A DNA stretch of 64,000 nucleotides from Patescibacteria group bacterium (GTDB lineage: Bacteria > Patescibacteriota > Microgenomatia > UBA12405): assembly GCA_013387215.1 (NCBI GenBank), contig WARW01000022.1, forward strand, positions 169,897-233,896, given 5' to 3'. Under the pieces are notes generated by a model, which searched no databases, was not told the origin of the DNA, and saw only the letters and a list, made by a program, of their open reading frames with translations. The translations under genes and the position numbers were made by a program. Positions 2,934-19,941 of the stretch are shown here, piece after piece (within the stretch, counting starts at the first letter, position 1; the number at the start of each line of letters is the position of its first letter).

Positions 2934-4418
2934 TTAACTGGTTAATTTAGAAATAGCGAGGTCTAGTTTATGGATAGTTTTTTCTTTACCAAGGGCTGGC
3001 AAACAATCGACAACTGGAGGTGTAAATTTAGACCCACAAATAGCAACTCGGAAAACCATAAAGTATTTTCCAACTTTATTTTCTTCATTCGACCAATTGT
3101 CTGATTTCAGCAATTCATCAATTTTTGCCTGAATATTGGAGGCTTTGAAATCGTCTATTTGCGACATTATGTCTTTGGTTTTTGAAATCATGTCGAGAAC
3201 CAAATCTTTTGACATTTCTTTGTCTTTGTACTCGAGAAGTAACGATTTATCGTAGTCCACATCTTCAAAAATAAATTTTGTTTGAGGTTGAAGATCTGAT
3301 AATTTAACAATTCTTTCTTTTAAAACCGGCAGTAAAATATTTATTTGCTCATCTGAAGCTTGAGGCAAAAACTTTTTAAACAAAACTTTTAATTCATCAT
3401 TGGATTTTTGACGGATATAATATCCGTTTAAATAGTCCAGTTTTTTACGATCAAATACTGGCGATTTTTTGTGGAGATGATCCAAACTAAAAGCTTGAAC
3501 AAATTCATCTAATGTAAAAAATTCACGATTGTCTCCCGGATTCCAACCTAAAAACATTAAAAAATTAAGCATGGCTTCTGGCAAATAACCTTCTTCTAGA
3601 AATGATCTGGCTGAAGTTGCGCCATGGCGTTTACTTAATTTTCCCTTACCGTCTGGATTTAATAATACCGTAAGATGGGCAATTTTAGGTGGTTCCCAGC
3701 CAAAATAGCGATAGAGTAAAAGATGTTTTGGAGTGGAAGTGAGCCATTCCTCACCTCGAAAGACATGAGATATTTCCATTAAATGATCGTCGACGACTGC
3801 AGCAAAATGATATGTAGGAATTCCATTTGATTTTATTAAAACCTGATCATCAATGTCATTAGTATTAAATTTTATTTTGCCGCGGATTACATCTTCGAAA
3901 ATAATAGTTTCATTTTTAGGAATGACCATACGGATGGTGTATGGTACTTTTGCATCAATATTTTTTTGAATTTCCTCGGGTGTTAAATGAAGACAATGTT
4001 GATCATAACGAGGAACTTGCTTGGCGGCTTTTTGAGTAGCACGAAGTTCATCAAGACGCTCTTGAGTACAAAAACAGCGATAAGCCAAACCTTTATCTAG
4101 TAATTCTTGAATATATTTTTGGTAAATTTCAAGACGTTGAGTCTGAATATATGGACCATAAGGCCCACCAATATCTGGACCTTCATCCCATTGCAGACCA
4201 TAGTCTTTTATAACTTGAAGGGTTCTTTCCATGGACCCAGGGACAAAACGTTTTTGATCAGTATCTTCGATTCTTATAATAAATTGGCCATTATTTTTTT
4301 TAGCGAGTGCATAATCATAAAGACAAGTTCTTAAGTGGCCAACATGATATTCCCCCGTTGGACTGGGAGCAATACGAGTTCTCACAATTTTGTTGTCAAT
4401 CATGGTTAATTTTATCAT
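2934..4418 (-). CDS. gltX: Glutamyl-tRNA synthetase
   Basis: HVGHLRT (HIGH motif) and KLSKR (KMSKS motif); class I catalytic core similarity. Confidence 0.9.
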   Translation of the reverse strand: MIKLTMIDNKIVRTRIAPSPTGEYHVGHLRTCLYDYALAKKNNGQFIIRIEDTDQKRFVPGSMERTLQVIKDYGLQWDEGPDIGGPYGPYIQTQRLEIYQKYIQELLDKGLAYRCFCTQERLDELRATQKAAKQVPRYDQHCLHLTPEEIQKNIDAKVPYTIRMVIPKNETIIFEDVIRGKIKFNTNDIDDQVLIKSNGIPTYHFAAVVDDHLMEISHVFRGEEWLTSTPKHLLLYRYFGWEPPKIAHLTVLLNPDGKGKLSKRHGATSARSFLEEGYLPEAMLNFLMFLGWNPGDNREFFTLDEFVQAFSLDHLHKKSPVFDRKKLDYLNGYYIRQKSNDELKVLFKKFLPQASDEQINILLPVLKERIVKLSDLQPQTKFIFEDVDYDKSLLLEYKDKEMSKDLVLDMISKTKDIMSQIDDFKASNIQAKIDELLKSDNWSNEENKVGKYFMVFRVAICGSKFTPPVVDCLPALGKEKTIHKLDLAISKLTS

Positions 4419-8460: not shown

Positions 8461-10134
8461 TCAAATAAGAAATATTTCTTTGACCATAAGTTGGGGAAGA
8501 GTTGTGTTATTCCAAGTGTTAAGTTCGAGTCGGGCAATAATATCAACATGATCACCCACTTTTAATTGACCATCCATTGATCCTTTTTTGAAAGCAATCG
8601 CATCGGCACTAATGTTTTCTAATTTTTTTGTGTCTGGATCATCAAATTTTAATTTTAAGTGATCCCCTGTTGAACCAACTAATCTTTTCTGAGAAACAAC
8701 TAAATCTTTAAATAAAAACAATGGTTCTGAGTTATCGATTCCAAATGGTTCAAGTTTTTTTGTTATCTGGCAATTTTTGACAGTGACAGCTTCCAGTTTC
8801 ATTTCTGCATCAACAGTGACAGACGGTTTTAAATCCAAGCCAGCTAATTTTTTATTAACAATTTTAGTTAATTCTTTTTTTAATTTTTCAATTTTTTTAG
8901 TTTCAATACTAAAACCAGCGGCTCCAGCATGGCCACCAAGATCGATAAATAAATCTGATACCTCACGAAGACTTTCTATAATATTTAGTTCTTTTATTGA
9001 ACGGCAAGAACCTTTGGAAACTTCTTCACCAACACTTATGGCAATACAAGGCAAATAATTTTTTTCAGTTAACCGACCAGCGATCAGACCAATAATTCCG
9101 GGATTGAAGGAAGGATCGTAAACAAACAATAGTTTGTCTGGCGAATCAGTTGATGCATTTTTTCGAATATTTTCTTCGGCAAGATCGAGACTGTCTTGTT
9201 GAAGCACTTGACGGTCTTTGTTGAATGAATCTAAAACTTTGGCATATTTATCGGCATAAAGTGAATTTGAACTGCATAAGAGACGCAAAGCATCGGTAGG
9301 ATTAGAAAGCCGGCCAACAGCATTAATTCTGGGACCTAAAATATACCCTAAATCATAGGCAGAAATACTATCGGCCTTAACACCACTTACTTGAACTAAT
9401 TTTTTAATTCCAGGACTGGGATTAAGCCTTAATGACAATAAACCATGAACCACGATGCTGCGATTAATGCCATTTAAAGGCATACAATCTGCAACTGCAC
9501 CTAAAGCTGCCAAACCTAAGTCAGCATTGGGGTTGAATTGCGAGGCCAATAGCCAGGCAAGAGTACAGCCAGACACTTGGGTTGAATGGACAATTGCCAG
9601 AGCGTTTGGCAATTCAGAGGTGGGCAAATGGTGATCCGTAATAATAACTTCAGTGCCAGATTCAACGATTTTTTCAATTTCTTTATTGGCGACGATTCCA
9701 TTATCAACAGTAATCAGTAGAGAGAATTTTTTATCTTTTTCCTTTTCGAAGGCGAAAAATGATTTTGCTTTAATACCATAGCCATCGTGTTCACGGTCGG
9801 GAATGAATGGCAAAACTTTTAGACCAGCATAACGCAAAGATTGCCAAAGAACTGCGGTTGAAGTGATGCCATCAACGTCATAATCTCCATAAATCAGGAC
9901 ATTTTCTTCATTCTTAATCGCTTTTTTAATTCTATCAACAGCTTTATTGAGTTGTTTTTGGCTGACTTTATATTGTTTTGGGGTTAGAGTTCCTGGAAAA
10001 ACAGGTTTTAAAAAATCGCTAATCTGATCTTTTTGAATATTTCTATTTTTTAAAAGCAAATCCAAAAAATCCAACTCAGAAAAGTCTTTTTCAATTACAG
10101 TCTTTGACTTAATAATAATTTCAGGTTTATTCAT
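8461..10134 (-). CDS. recJ: Single-stranded-DNA-specific exonuclease RecJ
   Basis: DHH motifs IYGDYDVDGITS and ITDHH, DHHA1 domain GGHAGAAG, C-terminal OB domain. Confidence 0.85.
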   Translation of the reverse strand: MNKPEIIIKSKTVIEKDFSELDFLDLLLKNRNIQKDQISDFLKPVFPGTLTPKQYKVSQKQLNKAVDRIKKAIKNEENVLIYGDYDVDGITSTAVLWQSLRYAGLKVLPFIPDREHDGYGIKAKSFFAFEKEKDKKFSLLITVDNGIVANKEIEKIVESGTEVIITDHHLPTSELPNALAIVHSTQVSGCTLAWLLASQFNPNADLGLAALGAVADCMPLNGINRSIVVHGLLSLRLNPSPGIKKLVQVSGVKADSISAYDLGYILGPRINAVGRLSNPTDALRLLCSSNSLYADKYAKVLDSFNKDRQVLQQDSLDLAEENIRKNASTDSPDKLLFVYDPSFNPGIIGLIAGRLTEKNYLPCIAISVGEEVSKGSCRSIKELNIIESLREVSDLFIDLGGHAGAAGFSIETKKIEKLKKELTKIVNKKLAGLDLKPSVTVDAEMKLEAVTVKNCQITKKLEPFGIDNSEPLFLFKDLVVSQKRLVGSTGDHLKLKFDDPDTKKLENISADAIAFKKGSMDGQLKVGDHVDIIARLELNTWNNTTLPQLMVKEIFLI

Positions 10135-10357
10135 GACAATAGCTTTAATTTTACACTGTTTTTATTAAAGCTAGGCATATATAAAAATTATATAAAAAAA
10201 CTTGATTTTCAGGGAAAAAGTGATATTATAGGTTGCATTACGAGCGAAAGCTTGTAATAAATTATTATATCGGCTTTGCCGATACTGACGAGTTTAGGTT
10301 CAAATTAAGCTTTGAGCCAGAACAGAGCCAGTGGTACTTTAAAAATACGGATTACCC

Positions 10358-10411
10358 GAGAGCTTGGGCTCATTGTGGGCAGCGCGCTGCCTAGAATGAG
10401 CACAAGCGCTC
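10358..10411 (+). promoter_or_regulatory. Long imperfect hairpin leader (apical palindrome GGCAGCGCGCTGCC) at the predicted 5' end of the 10439 transcript
   Basis: About 17-bp stem GAGAGCTTGGGCTCATT/AATGAGCACAAGCGCTC directly downstream of TTTAAAAAT (-10-like), about 28 nt before the start codon; homologous element before the paralog at 11229. Confidence 0.4.
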
Positions 10412-10438
10412 AAAGTTATAAATTAGGAGGTAATAGGT

Positions 10439-10906
10439 ATGAAAAAATTATTTTCAAGATGGTTCTTGATCCTTATATTGGTGGCTATCTTGTCCGCTTT
10501 TGCTGTTTGCTACGGAGTATCCGCATCAAATGCAAAACATACAACAGACAAATTCACGGTAGAAAATATAAATGGTGAGGTCATCTTGTCTAATTTCGAC
10601 AAAGACATTGCCTCTTATGTTGGACACCAAAGCAGTTATACTGCTACCGGGACTCACGAGTCTACCAGTCTGACAATTAATGTTGGACCTGGCGAATACG
10701 GTATAGTTGGCGGATCAAAAGTATTTTATTTTGATGACTTCTACACTGTTGTCGGACCTGGAACTTATACGTTTCAAGTCACTGACGGCTTTGCAGAAGT
10801 TGTTAATAGTAAATACGCAGCCAAACAGTGGCAATACAGATTGTGGCAAACACAAAAAAATAAATGGTCACTGAAAGGAACCTACAATACACTTTTAAAG
10901 TGGTAA
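10439..10906 (+). CDS. Small secreted protein, paralog A (signal peptide; GPG.YT..TDGF..VV C-terminal block)
   Basis: RBS AGGAGG 8 nt upstream; signal peptide with AxA-like site; paralogous to 11229..11633. Confidence 0.6.
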   Translation: MKKLFSRWFLILILVAILSAFAVCYGVSASNAKHTTDKFTVENINGEVILSNFDKDIASYVGHQSSYTATGTHESTSLTINVGPGEYGIVGGSKVFYFDDFYTVVGPGTYTFQVTDGFAEVVNSKYAAKQWQYRLWQTQKNKWSLKGTYNTLLKW

Positions 10907-10972
10907 TCCGTAAGGGCAGAATTGTTAAATCTTAATAAACTTTATGTTTATTATTTTTTATACTTTTCTGTC

Positions 10973-11028
10973 CTTTGGTCTATTGGTAAACCAATACTGA
11001 TGAGTCCGTTTTGAGGACGAAACCGAAG
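10973..11028 (+). ncRNA. Hammerhead ribozyme, type III (copy 1)
   Basis: CUUUGG-U-C^ / stem I UAUUGG-UAAA-CCAAUA / CUGAUGA / stem II GUCC-GUUUUGA-GGAC / GAAA / CCGAAG; all 11 invariant core nucleotides present, cleavage site GUC at 10978-10980. Confidence 0.85.
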
Positions 11029-11143
11029 AGGTATAGTTTTTTGGGAAATTTGTGCTAAATTACATTAGTTGTAAACTAAAATGGTTATTAAAAATAGCTT
11101 TTAATAGTCATTAGCACTTTAAAAAAGGTTGAATTGTTGTGAA

Positions 11144-11201
11144 ATGAGCTTGAGCTTGTTGTGGACAGTATTTTTACTGTTTAGAATGAGCTCAAGCTCA
11201 A
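11144..11201 (+). promoter_or_regulatory. Long hairpin leader (apical palindrome ACAGTA-TTTT-TACTGT) at the 5' end of the 11229 transcript
   Basis: 13-bp perfect stem GAGCTTGAGCTT/AAGCTCAAGCTC just downstream of TTTAAAAAA; same architecture and basal-stem sequence as 10358-10411. Confidence 0.4.
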
Positions 11202-11228
11202 ATTCTAAGAAGAAAGAAGGTGAGTTAA

Positions 11229-11633
11229 ATGAAAGGAAGGCGTTTTTTGGCTGCATTTTTGACTGTTTTAATTGTTTTTGTTTGTGTTTCAATACCTGCG
11301 TTTGCACATACTTGCAAACATGTAGACGTGAATATTGACAATTACCAATCAAACGGAGTTTATCAATCAACAGGGGTGGGTGTGACAAAAACAATAACGT
11401 TCTACGTTTGCCCAAACCAAATTGGCGTGCTTGGAGCCAATAAATATGGCGGCTACACTGATGGAGTTTACAAAACTTTTGGACCTGGATGGTACACAGA
11501 GACACTGACAGATGGTTTTGTGAATGTTGTAGACAAATCCGATGCCTGGAAAGAATGGACATACAGACTTAAAATGGCACGGGACCATAAGTGGGCAGCT
11601 AATCATCTTTTCACCAATGCGTTACCTAAGTAG
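11229..11633 (+). CDS. Small secreted protein, paralog B
   Basis: RBS GAAGGTGAG; signal peptide ..SIPAFA; C-terminal block GPGWYTETLTDGFVNVVDKSDAWKEWTYRL aligns with paralog A. Confidence 0.6.
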   Translation: MKGRRFLAAFLTVLIVFVCVSIPAFAHTCKHVDVNIDNYQSNGVYQSTGVGVTKTITFYVCPNQIGVLGANKYGGYTDGVYKTFGPGWYTETLTDGFVNVVDKSDAWKEWTYRLKMARDHKWAANHLFTNALPK

Positions 11634-11698
11634 CAATTCAACCTATGGATAGGAAATTTTATTTATAAGCAATTGCTTATTTATATTATTTCTTATCC

Positions 11699-11753
11699 TT
11701 CGGTCTATTGGTAAACCAATACTGATGAGTCCGTTTTGAGGACGAAACCGAAG
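11699..11753 (+). ncRNA. Hammerhead ribozyme, type III (copy 2)
   Basis: Same core as copy 1 with stem III CUUCGG/CCGAAG; the G-C pair here is G.U in copy 1, a compensatory-type difference; cleavage after C11706. Confidence 0.85.
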
Positions 11754-11878
11754 TGTAAGAATTGTGTTTTTTGTGATGTATGTTATATAATTTAATTAGT
11801 TAGTAGTTGTCGCCAACAACTTTTAATGAGGTTTAAACCTTTTAATTTAGTTTAGGAAAAGGAGAAATTCTTGATACT

Positions 11879-12148
11879 ATGGCAAAAAAATTATTTGTAG
11901 GCAATCTCCCATTCGCAATGAATGATGATCAGCTAAGAGAAATCTTTGCCGCTTATGGCAATGTCGTCTCTGCAAATGTCGTTATCGACAGATATGCAAA
12001 TAGGAGTAAAGGATTCGGTTTCGTTGAATTCGAAAACGAAGAAGATGCTTCTAAAGCATTAGCTTCATTAAATGGAACTGAACAAATGGGCAGAAATATT
12101 GCTGTTAAAGAAGCTTTAGCAAAGCCCGAAAGACAAGATAATCAATAA
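11879..12148 (+). CDS. RRM-type RNA-binding protein
   Basis: RNP-2 LFVGNL and RNP-1 KGFGFVEF motifs; 89 aa single RRM. Confidence 0.8.
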   Translation: MAKKLFVGNLPFAMNDDQLREIFAAYGNVVSANVVIDRYANRSKGFGFVEFENEEDASKALASLNGTEQMGRNIAVKEALAKPERQDNQ

Positions 12149-12167
12149 ATTTTCGTGTCTTTTTACA

Positions 12168-12194
12168 CCCTCCGATACTTTCGGAGGGTTTTTG
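12168..12194 (+). terminator. Intrinsic terminator after RRM gene
   Basis: CCCTCCGA-TACT-TTCGGAGGG followed by TTTTT. Confidence 0.7.
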
Positions 12195-12216
12195 GTTTAA
12201 AATACACTATAAAGAT

Positions 12217-13554
12217 ATGATGAAATTAATCATTCCAGAAAAAATTAAGAAAATAATCGACGTGTTTCATAAAGCAAACGCTGAGATTTATGTTGTTGGC
12301 GGAGCTGTCCGAGATTTGATGCTGAACCGAGAAGTAAAAGATTGGGATTTTACAACCAATTTAACTCCAGAAGAAATGAAAAAATTATTTCCAAAAAATA
12401 GTTTTTGCAATAATATTTTTGGAACTTTTAGTATAGTTGATAAAAGTGGAGAAATTTTTGAAGTAACAACATTTAGAACTGAACAGGGATATTCTGATAA
12501 AAGGCACCCTGATGAAGTTAAATGGGGAAAAAGTTTGGAAGAAGATTTGCAAAGACGCGATTTTACAATCAACGCCATGGCTTTGGATGTACAAAACGAG
12601 GAAATAAAGATCATCGATTTGTATAACGGCCAAGAAGATTTAAATAATAAATTAATCCGAACTGTTGGTAATCCAGATGAAAGATTCAGCGAAGATGCTT
12701 TAAGAATGATGAGAGCAATTAGGATTGCTTCACAAATTGGATTTTTGATTGAAGAAAAAACTTTTGAATCAATTCAAAAAAATGCTGGCTTAATTAATCA
12801 AATTGCCAACGAAAGAATTAGGGATGAATTATTCAAAATTCTGATGTCTTCAGTCCCCTCTCAAGGAATAATTCTTTTAAAAAATTCAGGACTTTTGAAG
12901 GAAATAATGCCTGAGTTATTGGAAGGCTATGAAATGAAACAAAAAGGCCATCATATTGATGATGTCTGGACTCATAATTTGAAAGCACTTGATAATTGTT
13001 TAAGCAATAATCCAATTACACGATTAGCTTGTCTTTTGCATGATGTTGGCAAGCCATCAACGGCTGTTGGTGAAGGTGAAGCCCGAACATTCCACAACCA
13101 TGAAATTGTCGGATCAAGAATTGCTGTTCAAATCGGAAAAAGATTAAGGTTGTCTAATAAAGAACTTGATCAATTATTCAAACTGGTGAGATGGCATATG
13201 TTTACTACTGAGGAAACGCAGACTGATAAAGCAGTCAGAAGATTTATTAGAAACGTAACTCCTGAATATATTGATGAAATGATTATTTTAAGAAGAGCTG
13301 ACAGAATGGGCAGCGGTGCCAAAGAAACCAGCTGGAGATGGGAGCTTTTTAAAGAAAGAATTGTTGAAGTGCAAAAACAACCTTTTTCAATTAAGGATCT
13401 GAAAGTAAACGGAAAAGACGTAATGGAAATTTTAAAAATTGAACCGAGCCGAAAAGTGGGCGAAGTTTTGGAATCTATTTTTAAAGAGGTTGAAGAAAAA
13501 CCAGAATTAAATGAAAGAGAAATATTATTAAAAAAAATTGAGGAGTACAAATAA
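12217..13554 (+). CDS. cca: CCA-adding tRNA nucleotidyltransferase with HD domain
   Basis: GGAVRD polymerase-beta motif, DWDF, RRDFTINA; C-terminal HD motif HHIDDVWTH...LHDVGK. Confidence 0.85.
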   Translation: MMKLIIPEKIKKIIDVFHKANAEIYVVGGAVRDLMLNREVKDWDFTTNLTPEEMKKLFPKNSFCNNIFGTFSIVDKSGEIFEVTTFRTEQGYSDKRHPDEVKWGKSLEEDLQRRDFTINAMALDVQNEEIKIIDLYNGQEDLNNKLIRTVGNPDERFSEDALRMMRAIRIASQIGFLIEEKTFESIQKNAGLINQIANERIRDELFKILMSSVPSQGIILLKNSGLLKEIMPELLEGYEMKQKGHHIDDVWTHNLKALDNCLSNNPITRLACLLHDVGKPSTAVGEGEARTFHNHEIVGSRIAVQIGKRLRLSNKELDQLFKLVRWHMFTTEETQTDKAVRRFIRNVTPEYIDEMIILRRADRMGSGAKETSWRWELFKERIVEVQKQPFSIKDLKVNGKDVMEILKIEPSRKVGEVLESIFKEVEEKPELNEREILLKKIEEYK

Positions 13555-19615: not shown

Positions 19616-19633
19616 GGTAAAATACACTATCCT

Positions 19634-19933
19634 AGAGAAGCTGAAGGGTTAACTCCGACGTAAAGCCGGAGAGGAAAGTCTGGACCACAAAAAGCAAGGA
19701 ACTTAAAAATATAGAGCAAGGCGTGAGCTTTGGGCAATGCTACAGAGACGAGTAGTCCCGCAAGGGATGAGATGAAACGAGCATCCTTCCTGTGGAAATC
19801 TCAAGTTGAGACGTTTGTATCTGGCTTCCCGAAGTAAATTCGGGATCAGGTTCGAAAGAATCTGATTTGAGAGTCTCAGGTGGAGAGAATAGATAGATGA
19901 CCCATAAACAGAATCCAGCTTAACAGTTTCTCT
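19634..19933 (+). ncRNA. rnpB: RNase P RNA (bacterial type A)
   Basis: P1 pairing AGAGAAGCUG/CAGUUUCUCU; P4 strands GAGGAAAGUCUGG and ACAGAAUCCAGCUUA match the universally conserved RNase P regions; TAAAAT -10 element 11 nt upstream. Confidence 0.8.
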
Positions 19934-19941
19934 GGGATATT

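Follow-up and report, generated by a model that had tools for sequence, protein, structure and literature searches.

Since 2011 it has been a described pattern that hammerhead ribozymes (HHRs) of bacteria and phages flank small open reading frames (ORFs) of unknown function (PMC3088659; PMC6155905). The canonical bacterial examples are intergenic, often lie several close together, are accompanied by small, non-conserved ORFs and usually have a phage connection (PMC3088659; PMC6155905; PMC6765202). Cleavage of tandem HHRs has been observed both in vitro and in vivo, and clustered HHRs have been proposed to cut polycistronic RNAs up into transcripts that differ in stability (PMC3088659; PMC6765202); the role of genomic hammerheads in bacteria has been called an open question (PMC6155905; PMC6765202). 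Here we describe two tandem cassettes at positions 10330-11760 of a 64-kb stretch of DNA from a Patescibacteria group bacterium (GCA_013387215.1, contig WARW01000022.1; the whole stretch is referred to as the window), each of which contains a gene for a small secreted protein followed by a long hairpin and a type III hammerhead ribozyme.

The locus is a further case of the known bacterial and phage arrangement, recurrently tied to one uncharacterised protein family. The novelty attached to it in a first-pass annotation of this DNA is not upheld, HHRs flanking small ORFs in bacteria and phages having been described before (PMC3088659; PMC6155905). As a kind of finding the locus is unsurprising; its value lies in contrasts by which the function of hammerheads in bacteria can be tested. 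Orthologous genes share a 3′ hairpin but differ in what follows it, a U-tract terminator or a hammerhead, which is a natural contrast bearing on HHR function; the ribozyme is found repeatedly behind genes of one protein family, in several genomes of the candidate phyla radiation (CPR) with differing neighbourhoods; and the layout of hairpin and hammerhead is enriched in phage contigs. Together these contrasts point to hairpin-capped 3′-end formation and the insulation of cistrons as the function.

The Two Hammerhead Ribozymes

In both copies the order is ACTTTAAAA, leader hairpin, ribosome-binding site (RBS), signal-peptide ORF, AU-rich hairpin and HHR, as the first-pass annotation had described it; all elements were found at or near the places assigned to them. 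Judged from sequence and covariation, HHR1 (10973-11028, + strand) and HHR2 (11698-11753, + strand) are genuine canonical type III hammerheads. When the 2.1-kb region was searched with the Rfam model RF00008 in E-value mode, HHR2 scored 44.7 bits (E 5.4e-8) and HHR1 30.3 bits (E 6.4e-4), the latter score being depressed by two features of stem III, a U.G pair and a gap in the alignment. The core pattern CTGANGAG..CGAAAC has two matches in the 64 kb, which are HHR1 and HHR2, where 0.02 were expected. Both copies carry CUGAUGA and GAA at the core positions C3-U4-G5-A6-N7-G8-A9 and G12-A13-A14, and both have a C as cleavage nucleotide H17, at 10980 and 11705. Helices I and II are closed by loops and helix III is open, with stems of 7, 6 and 4 bp; by inspection, A-U contacts could form between loop 1 (UAAA) and loop 2 (GUUUUGA). 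Self-cleavage is predicted after C10980, as had been annotated, and after C11705, where the annotation had given C11706.

A covariance model built from the two window HHRs (R1) retrieved six more HHRs, in the loci L001, L055, L057, L133, L135 and L138 (loci compared with the window are given as L numbers, their proteins as P numbers), of which the one in L057 is also matched by RF00008 (39.7 bits). Over the eight HHRs from seven contigs, 96% of the cells are paired and 12 of the 17 pairs show compensatory changes; the core is invariant (with U or C as N7), and so are the junction pairs U16.1-A15.1, G10.1-C11.1 and U1.1-A2.1 (8/8). Fitting the alignment to the model favours the pairing result, and it is the slid controls (26-53% paired) that make the result clear; neither shuffled nor slid controls reach the values of the HHR alignment. 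The description of both elements as complete type III hammerheads, with full cores and three helices, is thereby borne out. An exact 27-mer of the HHR core had no match in GTDB genomes, and a lineage-specific HHR pattern had none in JGI metagenomes or IMG/VR.

HHR1 and HHR2 are identical in 56 of 56 nucleotides, whereas the modules are only about 55% identical outside of them. Conserved non-coding flanks next to diverged coding sequence, as annotated, are thus found in the form of ribozymes that are 100% identical beside coding parts of about 55% identity. Since all three stems differ between the window HHRs and their orthologues in L055 and L001, and also between these two orthologues, the identity suggests gene conversion inside this genome.

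Upstream of cassette 1, at 10267-10291 (+ strand), a stem I hairpin TATCGGCTTTGCCGATA is directly followed by CTGACGAG, which together resemble stem I and the 5′ core of the cassette hammerheads, a U-A pair being replaced by C-G in a compensatory manner. This element has neither stem II nor GAAA nor stem III, and R1 gives it 6.8 bits with the filters off; probably a third hammerhead has decayed here, at the array's upstream edge. A third full hammerhead at 10258-10309 was rejected because of the same score of only 6.8 bits, the element being a half-relic at best.

The 3′ Hairpin and its Terminator Counterpart

Each ribozyme directly follows an AU-rich hairpin. The 3′ arm of hairpin 1 (10912-10975, + strand; free energy, dG, -22.6; z -7.6) abuts stem III of HHR1 with an overlap of 3 nt, and hairpin 2 (11647-11697, + strand; z -8.2) ends 0 nt before stem III of HHR2. 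The same adjacency is found for seven of the eight HHRs (both in the window and those in L001, L055, L133, L135 and L138), in which only 0-3 nt separate the end of a hairpin of 20-30 bp (z -4 to -8) from the 5′ strand of stem III. The annotated AU-rich palindrome with a U-run is present in both modules as far as the hairpin is concerned, but a clean U-run occurs in module 1 only. Immediately behind the stem of the hairpins following ORF1 and ORF2 there is no U-tract, and the terminator scan gave no site after either ORF. Intrinsic terminators are recognised by a G+C-rich stem with an immediate U-tract; in the window the hairpins are AU-rich, and what comes next is an HHR.

L055 and L004 contain orthologous ORFs (66% identity) with homologous 3′ hairpins. 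Past the common sequence ...CCCAC(A/C)CCT, L004 continues with T8, whereas L055 continues with GGTC and the HHR; in L004 the T8 terminator is followed by the promoter of a gene for a protein with an RNA recognition motif (RRM). U-tract and ribozyme have therefore replaced one another while the hairpin was kept, and because orthologous loci end in one or the other behind the same hairpin, a terminator-like role of hairpin plus ribozyme is suggested. The ordinary combination of hairpin and U-run is also used by the second cassette of L055 and by the inserts of L008 and L011.

A scan of IMG/VR with the pattern GGTCTA...TACTGAYGAG...CGAAACC yielded 73 type III HHRs, 47 of them distinct (L059-L131). 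A hairpin (dG <= -10) ends within 6 nt upstream (<=6 nt) in 57% of these 47 phage HHRs vs 20% of control positions, an enrichment with a Mann-Whitney p of 5e-7 among sequences that are not mutually independent.

The 3′ hairpins were also considered, by eye, as integron attC-like sites; this was rejected, no integrase being nearby and the hairpin sequences not being conserved.

The Secreted-Protein Family and its Tie to the Ribozyme

ORF1 (10439-10906, + strand; RBS AGGAGG at 10425-10430) and ORF2 (11229-11633, + strand) encode proteins of 155 and 134 amino acids (aa), each with a signal-peptide-like N-terminus, read by eye, and the same C-terminal domain of about 90 aa. The two proteins are paralogues (36% identity over 88 aa, E 2e-16), so that the HHRs lie, as annotated, in the 3′ untranslated regions (UTRs) of paralogous secreted-protein genes. 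Orthologues of ORF1 are P0134 (L055) and P0005 (L004); that of ORF2 is P0004 (L001), with 64% identity. A word-index protein search returned the window's own genes only, and a protein-pattern scan of metagenomes gave no relatives; these were obtained via an exhaustive profile search and Logan contigs. With the C-terminal 90 or so residues, the exhaustive profile search found 130 representative clusters at E<1e-3, in most of which the C-terminal domain is preceded by a low-complexity linker and, at the N-terminus, by a membrane anchor or signal peptide. The AlphaFold2 model of ORF2 has a pLDDT (predicted local distance difference test) of 88, and no structural relative of the domain family was detectable; the suggestion that the mature proteins are bacteriocin- or adhesin-like effectors found no support.

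Among the eleven family genes with readable downstream DNA, six (both in the window and those in L001, L055, L133 and L138) have an HHR about 50-95 nt past the stop codon; the family genes of L004, L132 and L140 are without one. In L135 and L057 the HHR stands behind a different secreted-protein ORF of the same locus, which in L057 is an ORF of 240 aa of doubtful relationship to the family (hhalign probability 51%). No HHR was found in 45 related CPR cca loci totalling about 450 kb, vs eight in a few loci of family members. The genes upstream of an HHR are always secreted-protein ORFs and those downstream vary (paralogue, RRM, unrelated ORF, GT2). In contigs outside the Shapirobacteria the family is found in loci of the type NTP-transferase...GT2, and the association of family and ribozyme thus extends across different neighbourhoods. 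That the arrangement is not a matter of chance, as the first-pass annotation had argued, is confirmed by the HHRs behind family members in L001, L055, L133 and L138 and by a leader with covariation in L055 and L057. The annotation had named as its refutation that homologues in relatives are never accompanied by the ribozyme or the leader; this is not what the relatives show.

L057, L133, L135 and L138 share a conserved locus composed of an NTP-transferase, small secreted proteins, a GT2 glycosyltransferase and a protein of about 830-960 aa, company that hints at a role in the cell envelope.

The 5′ Leader and the Motif Ahead of It

The 9-mer ACTTTAAAA (10336-10344 and 11116-11124, + strand), seen in the comparison of the repeats, recurs at the equivalent place in L001 (401-409), L055 (4884-4892) and L057 (1203-1211 and 2448-2456); in these four genomes it lies 8-30 nt ahead of structured 5′ leaders that belong to cassettes for secreted proteins. 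Leader hairpin 1 (10358-10411, + strand) has about 22 bp with three 1x1 mismatches (dG -36.3, z -5.4), and leader hairpin 2 (11145-11200, + strand) has 16 bp, a G.G and a further 9 bp (dG -38.2, z -8.8). Their apical 16 bp are common to both window copies, L055 and L057, with six compensatory pairs, one invariant G.U and a conserved internal mismatch. In a search with a covariance model of the leader the + strand scored above the - strand by 25-45 bits, which marks the leader as an RNA element; the model found no further copies in the DNA examined. Because the 3′ end of the leader is 20-28 nt upstream of the RBS, the leader does not occlude it.

The first-pass annotation had read TTTAAAAAT as a -10 box from which transcription would start inside the leader hairpin. 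Neither part of this found support. The window hairpins begin 12-19 nt past the -10-like box (the second box is TTTAAAAAA), so that a start would precede the hairpin rather than fall inside it. As a sigma-70 -10 box TTTAAAAAT was rejected: there is no -35 element or TG at the proper spacing from it, canonical promoters are found 30-130 nt upstream of the motif in L055 and L057, and ACTTTAAAA is not enriched window-wide (8 matches vs 4.95 expected). ACTTTAAAA could be either a promoter element or an RNA processing signal, the latter explaining it at least as well as a -10 box would. A candidate for cassette 2's own promoter is the block TTGTGC-16-TAAACT in the interval between HHR1 and cassette 2 (11050-11077, + strand), which is conserved in L001, where cassette 1 and HHR1 are absent. 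For the divergent region between recJ and cassette 1 the consensus scan gave a sigma-70-like promoter candidate, TTGATT-16-TATTAT with TG (10202-10229, + strand), and the terminator scan an intrinsic terminator site on the + strand upstream of cassette 1 (10237-10258), within a structured stretch (10230-10335, z -4.6).

In L057 three copies of another structured element of about 60 nt (2459-2520, 3643-3699 and 3739-3797; z -4.9 to -6.3) occur in the 5′ UTRs of secreted-protein genes; this element has no Rfam match at E<0.01.

Setting of the Locus and Independence of the RRM Gene

By the relatives of its CCA-adding enzyme, the source is an uncultured Candidatus Shapirobacteria (CPR/Patescibacteria) bacterium, in whose chromosome both cassettes are insertions in a conserved gap between recJ and RRM. 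The neighbouring genes are aspS, recJ (8461-10134, - strand), RRM (11879-12148, + strand; PF00076, E 1.5e-25), cca for the CCA-adding enzyme (12217-13554, ORF list and domain search) and secDF; an intrinsic terminator follows the RRM gene at 12167-12189 (+ strand). The order recJ(-), RRM(+), cca(+), with a short recJ-RRM gap, is kept in about 21 related species, whose loci contain neither a member of the small-protein family nor an HHR. The RRM gene has a promoter (TTGTGT-18-TATAAT, 11762-11791, + strand; TGTTATATAAT) and a structured 5′ UTR that are conserved whether or not a species has cassettes, and HHR2 lies upstream of this promoter. As synteny and promoter are conserved irrespective of the cassettes, the RRM gene is an ancestral neighbour outside the module: it does begin 125 nt past the second ribozyme, as annotated, but it does not belong to the cassettes, and a functional link to them was rejected on the ground of synteny. 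The RRM 5′ UTR (window 11792-11878; also L001, L004, L007 and L055) folds into a hairpin with a GCCAAC loop and contains a GGTTTAAACC palindrome; it may be an autoregulatory or cold-shock-type leader.

L001-L003 have a single cassette, which contains the orthologue of ORF2 with ACTTTAAAA, the 3′ hairpin and an HHR whose stems covary; the long leader hairpin is absent from it. L055 and L056 are syntenic with the window over aspS-recJ...RRM-cca-secDF. The ORF1 orthologue in their first cassette has the motif and a homologous leader hairpin in front of it and the 3′ hairpin and HHR behind it, after which come a different long leader hairpin, an unrelated ORF of 130 aa and an intrinsic terminator.

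Unrelated small cytoplasmic ORFs were noticed in the recJ-RRM gap of L008 (1994-2365), L011 (4070-4453) and L055 (5695-6087). Each of them ends in an ordinary terminator of hairpin and U-run and none has a Pfam hit; since these loci hold unrelated small ORFs there, the gap is an insertion hot spot for small genes.

The integrase or phage genes that would be expected of a prophage-associated cluster are not found beside the cassettes; the cassette ORFs have no PHROG hits, and there are no further copies of the cassette within the window. Elsewhere in the window (19633-19934, + strand) lies an RNase P RNA whose top model is the archaeal RF00373 (101.7 bits, E 2.8e-27) and not a bacterial RNase P model.

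Proposed Mechanism

We consider it somewhat better than an even call that the hairpin and co-transcriptional cleavage by the hammerhead form hairpin-capped 3′ ends of mRNAs and insulate neighbouring genes from one another. The proposal is founded on the identity and conservation of the ribozymes, the adjacency of the hairpin, the association with the protein family, the status of the cassettes as insertions and the independence of the RRM gene; it would entail cleavage in vivo, mRNA stabilisation, insulation, a role of the leader and the steps at the start site. The hammerhead would fold once RNA polymerase has transcribed beyond the 3′ hairpin and would cleave itself after C10980 in cassette 1 and after C11705 in cassette 2. 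The 3′ end of the upstream mRNA would then consist of a stable hairpin with a tail of 8 nt and a 2′,3′-cyclic phosphate and would be expected to resist 3′ exonucleases, while the read-through RNA would be cut off bearing a 5′-OH. The unit of hairpin and ribozyme would in this way do the job of a terminator hairpin with U-tract, or supplement it, by defining the 3′ end, and the insulation would protect the next unit (cassette 2 and then the housekeeping genes RRM-cca) from the inserted gene. The 5′ leader hairpin would most likely be a 5′ stabiliser or a processing site. The proposal agrees with the role put forward for clustered bacterial HHRs, by which long transcripts become single-gene mRNAs differing in stability (PMC3088659; PMC6765202).

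Several points weigh against this proposal. The polymerase is not halted by the cleavage, and termination is thus meant in a functional, not in a physical sense. The RF00008 search proposed in the first-pass annotation gave matches at both sites, but neither HHR reaches the gathering score of 48.5 bits, which is a curation cut-off rather than a structural feature; since both scores are below it, a default Rfam gathering scan missed them and reported no hammerhead. Eight HHRs are few, and all come from related CPR lineages. Stem III of the L001 HHR is weak (3 bp, two U.U mismatches, 2 bp), and the identity of the two window copies may reflect gene conversion and not selection. In L057 a terminator-like hairpin lies 30 nt upstream of the HHR, which there adds to a terminator and does not replace one. 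Most phage HHRs have an RBS and an ATG within 10-25 nt downstream. In L138 the HHR (2472-2529; also L139, 1916-1973) lies behind the family member P0012 and ahead of the GT2 gene, and the 3′ strand of its stem III, AGGAG, is the Shine-Dalgarno sequence of that gene, with the ATG 5 nt on; cleavage and product release could unmask this ribosome-binding site, and in L138 and in cases of the phage type the ribozyme may therefore serve the downstream gene.

Alternative Explanations

Generalised to all loci, the last point becomes an explanation of its own, in which the ribozyme trims off the upstream RNA and provides the downstream gene with a defined 5′-OH leader, or unmasks its RBS, as a natural insulator of the RiboJ type. 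Besides L138 and the phage examples it is favoured by L133, where the ATG is 8 nt past the HHR. Against it, 200 and 125 nt separate the window HHRs from the start codons that follow, and conserved promoter-like blocks lie between each HHR and the downstream ORF; moreover, the downstream genes are heterogeneous, whereas the type of the upstream gene and the hairpin are constant. We therefore regard service to the downstream gene as unlikely to be the general explanation.

The 3-nt overlap between the 3′ arm of hairpin 1 and stem III could also indicate a regulated switch, in which the base of the hairpin or an upstream ACC competes with stem III, and temperature, a protein (e.g. an RNA-binding one) or the speed of transcription decides on cleavage and so tunes the expression of the secreted protein. 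The minimum free energy fold of HHR1 with its flanks indeed differs from the active fold, and an ACC or GCC 5′ of the hairpin is pairable with GGU of stem III in window copy 2, L001 and L055. The competing pairings amount, however, to just 3 bp, L004 has the same ACC yet no HHR, and no conserved element resembling a ligand-binding one was seen, nor any Rfam hit; a switch is improbable on these grounds.

Two HHRs on the same strand, 725 nt apart, would upon cleavage release an RNA (10981-11705) with the right end chemistry for circularisation by a ligase such as RtcB, that is a retrozyme-, viroid- or Obelisk-like RNA encoding ORF2, or such a mobile element could have left the cassettes behind as remnants. 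Both cassettes are insertions specific to their lineage, and circles have been considered possible for bacterial HHR clusters, although Perreault et al. did not detect them (PMC3088659). The predicted fold of the 725 nt is branched, with 14 hairpins and 67% of the nucleotides paired vs 63% in shuffles, and speaks against a rod-like or circular RNA of this kind; the units are diverged paralogues (about 55% identity outside the HHR) and not repeats of one replicon, L001 and L055 have one HHR per locus, and the window contains no other copies. This origin is very improbable. Still harder to credit are inactive relics or chance matches, for which the scores below the Rfam threshold, the decayed half-HHR at 10267-10291 and a doubtful U15.1-A16.1 variant in L136 and L137 may be quoted, but which do not agree with perfect cores, with compensatory changes at 12 of 17 pairs over eight sequences, with copies that are 56/56 identical amid diverged flanks or with a placement that recurs in seven contigs.

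Returning to 3′-end formation by hairpin and hammerhead, we tentatively extend it to a broader statement, which may hold but to which we give clearly less than even confidence: in Shapirobacteria-like CPR bacteria "long hairpin + type III hammerhead" would be an interchangeable alternative to the intrinsic terminator that travels with one secreted-protein family bearing a dedicated 5′ leader (ACUUUAAAA and the conserved hairpin) and serves newly inserted genes as a 3′-end-forming and insulating device. If true, the genomic hammerheads of bacteria would thereby acquire a function beyond phages that is concrete and open to testing. The locus also draws attention to two features of a bacterial radiation that is poorly understood, a protein domain family (the 130 representative clusters) and a conserved 5′ leader RNA.

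Comparison with Known Systems

The cassettes resemble the clustered HHRs of bacteria and prophages (Perreault et al., 2011; PMC3088659) in that the ribozymes are intergenic, lie on the coding strand, several within about 1 kb, and flank small ORFs. Unlike these, they are found in a housekeeping neighbourhood of a CPR chromosome without integrase, phage genes or PHROG hits, they are tied to one secreted-protein family, and they are fused to a long 3′ hairpin behind genes with a conserved 5′ leader hairpin.

With retrozymes and with viroid-like and Obelisk circular RNAs they have in common the tandem type III HHRs 600-1000 nt apart. They differ from them in that the RNA between the ribozymes is neither rod-like nor compact, in that diverged paralogues are encoded, and in that the tandem is not conserved in the relatives.

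Like intrinsic terminators, the units of hairpin and ribozyme stand behind a stop codon and ahead of the next promoter and contain a stable hairpin. The difference is that here the 3′ end would be generated by the predicted self-cleavage, leaving a 2′,3′-cyclic phosphate, while the polymerase continues.

Ribozymes in bacterial 3′ UTRs were reportedly the subject of work by Felletti, Bieber and Hartig in 2017 (cited in PMC6765202). Like these and the 3′-UTR hammerhead of the mammalian Clec2 genes, the ribozymes described here are self-cleaving elements located past the stop codon but within the transcript, where they can determine the fate of the mRNA. In bacterial 3′-UTR ribozymes and in the Clec2 hammerhead, cleavage takes off a stabilising 3′ element and expression falls. 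In the cassettes, by contrast, the protective hairpin would remain on the coding fragment, and for this reason cleavage would be expected to stabilise the mRNA of the secreted protein.

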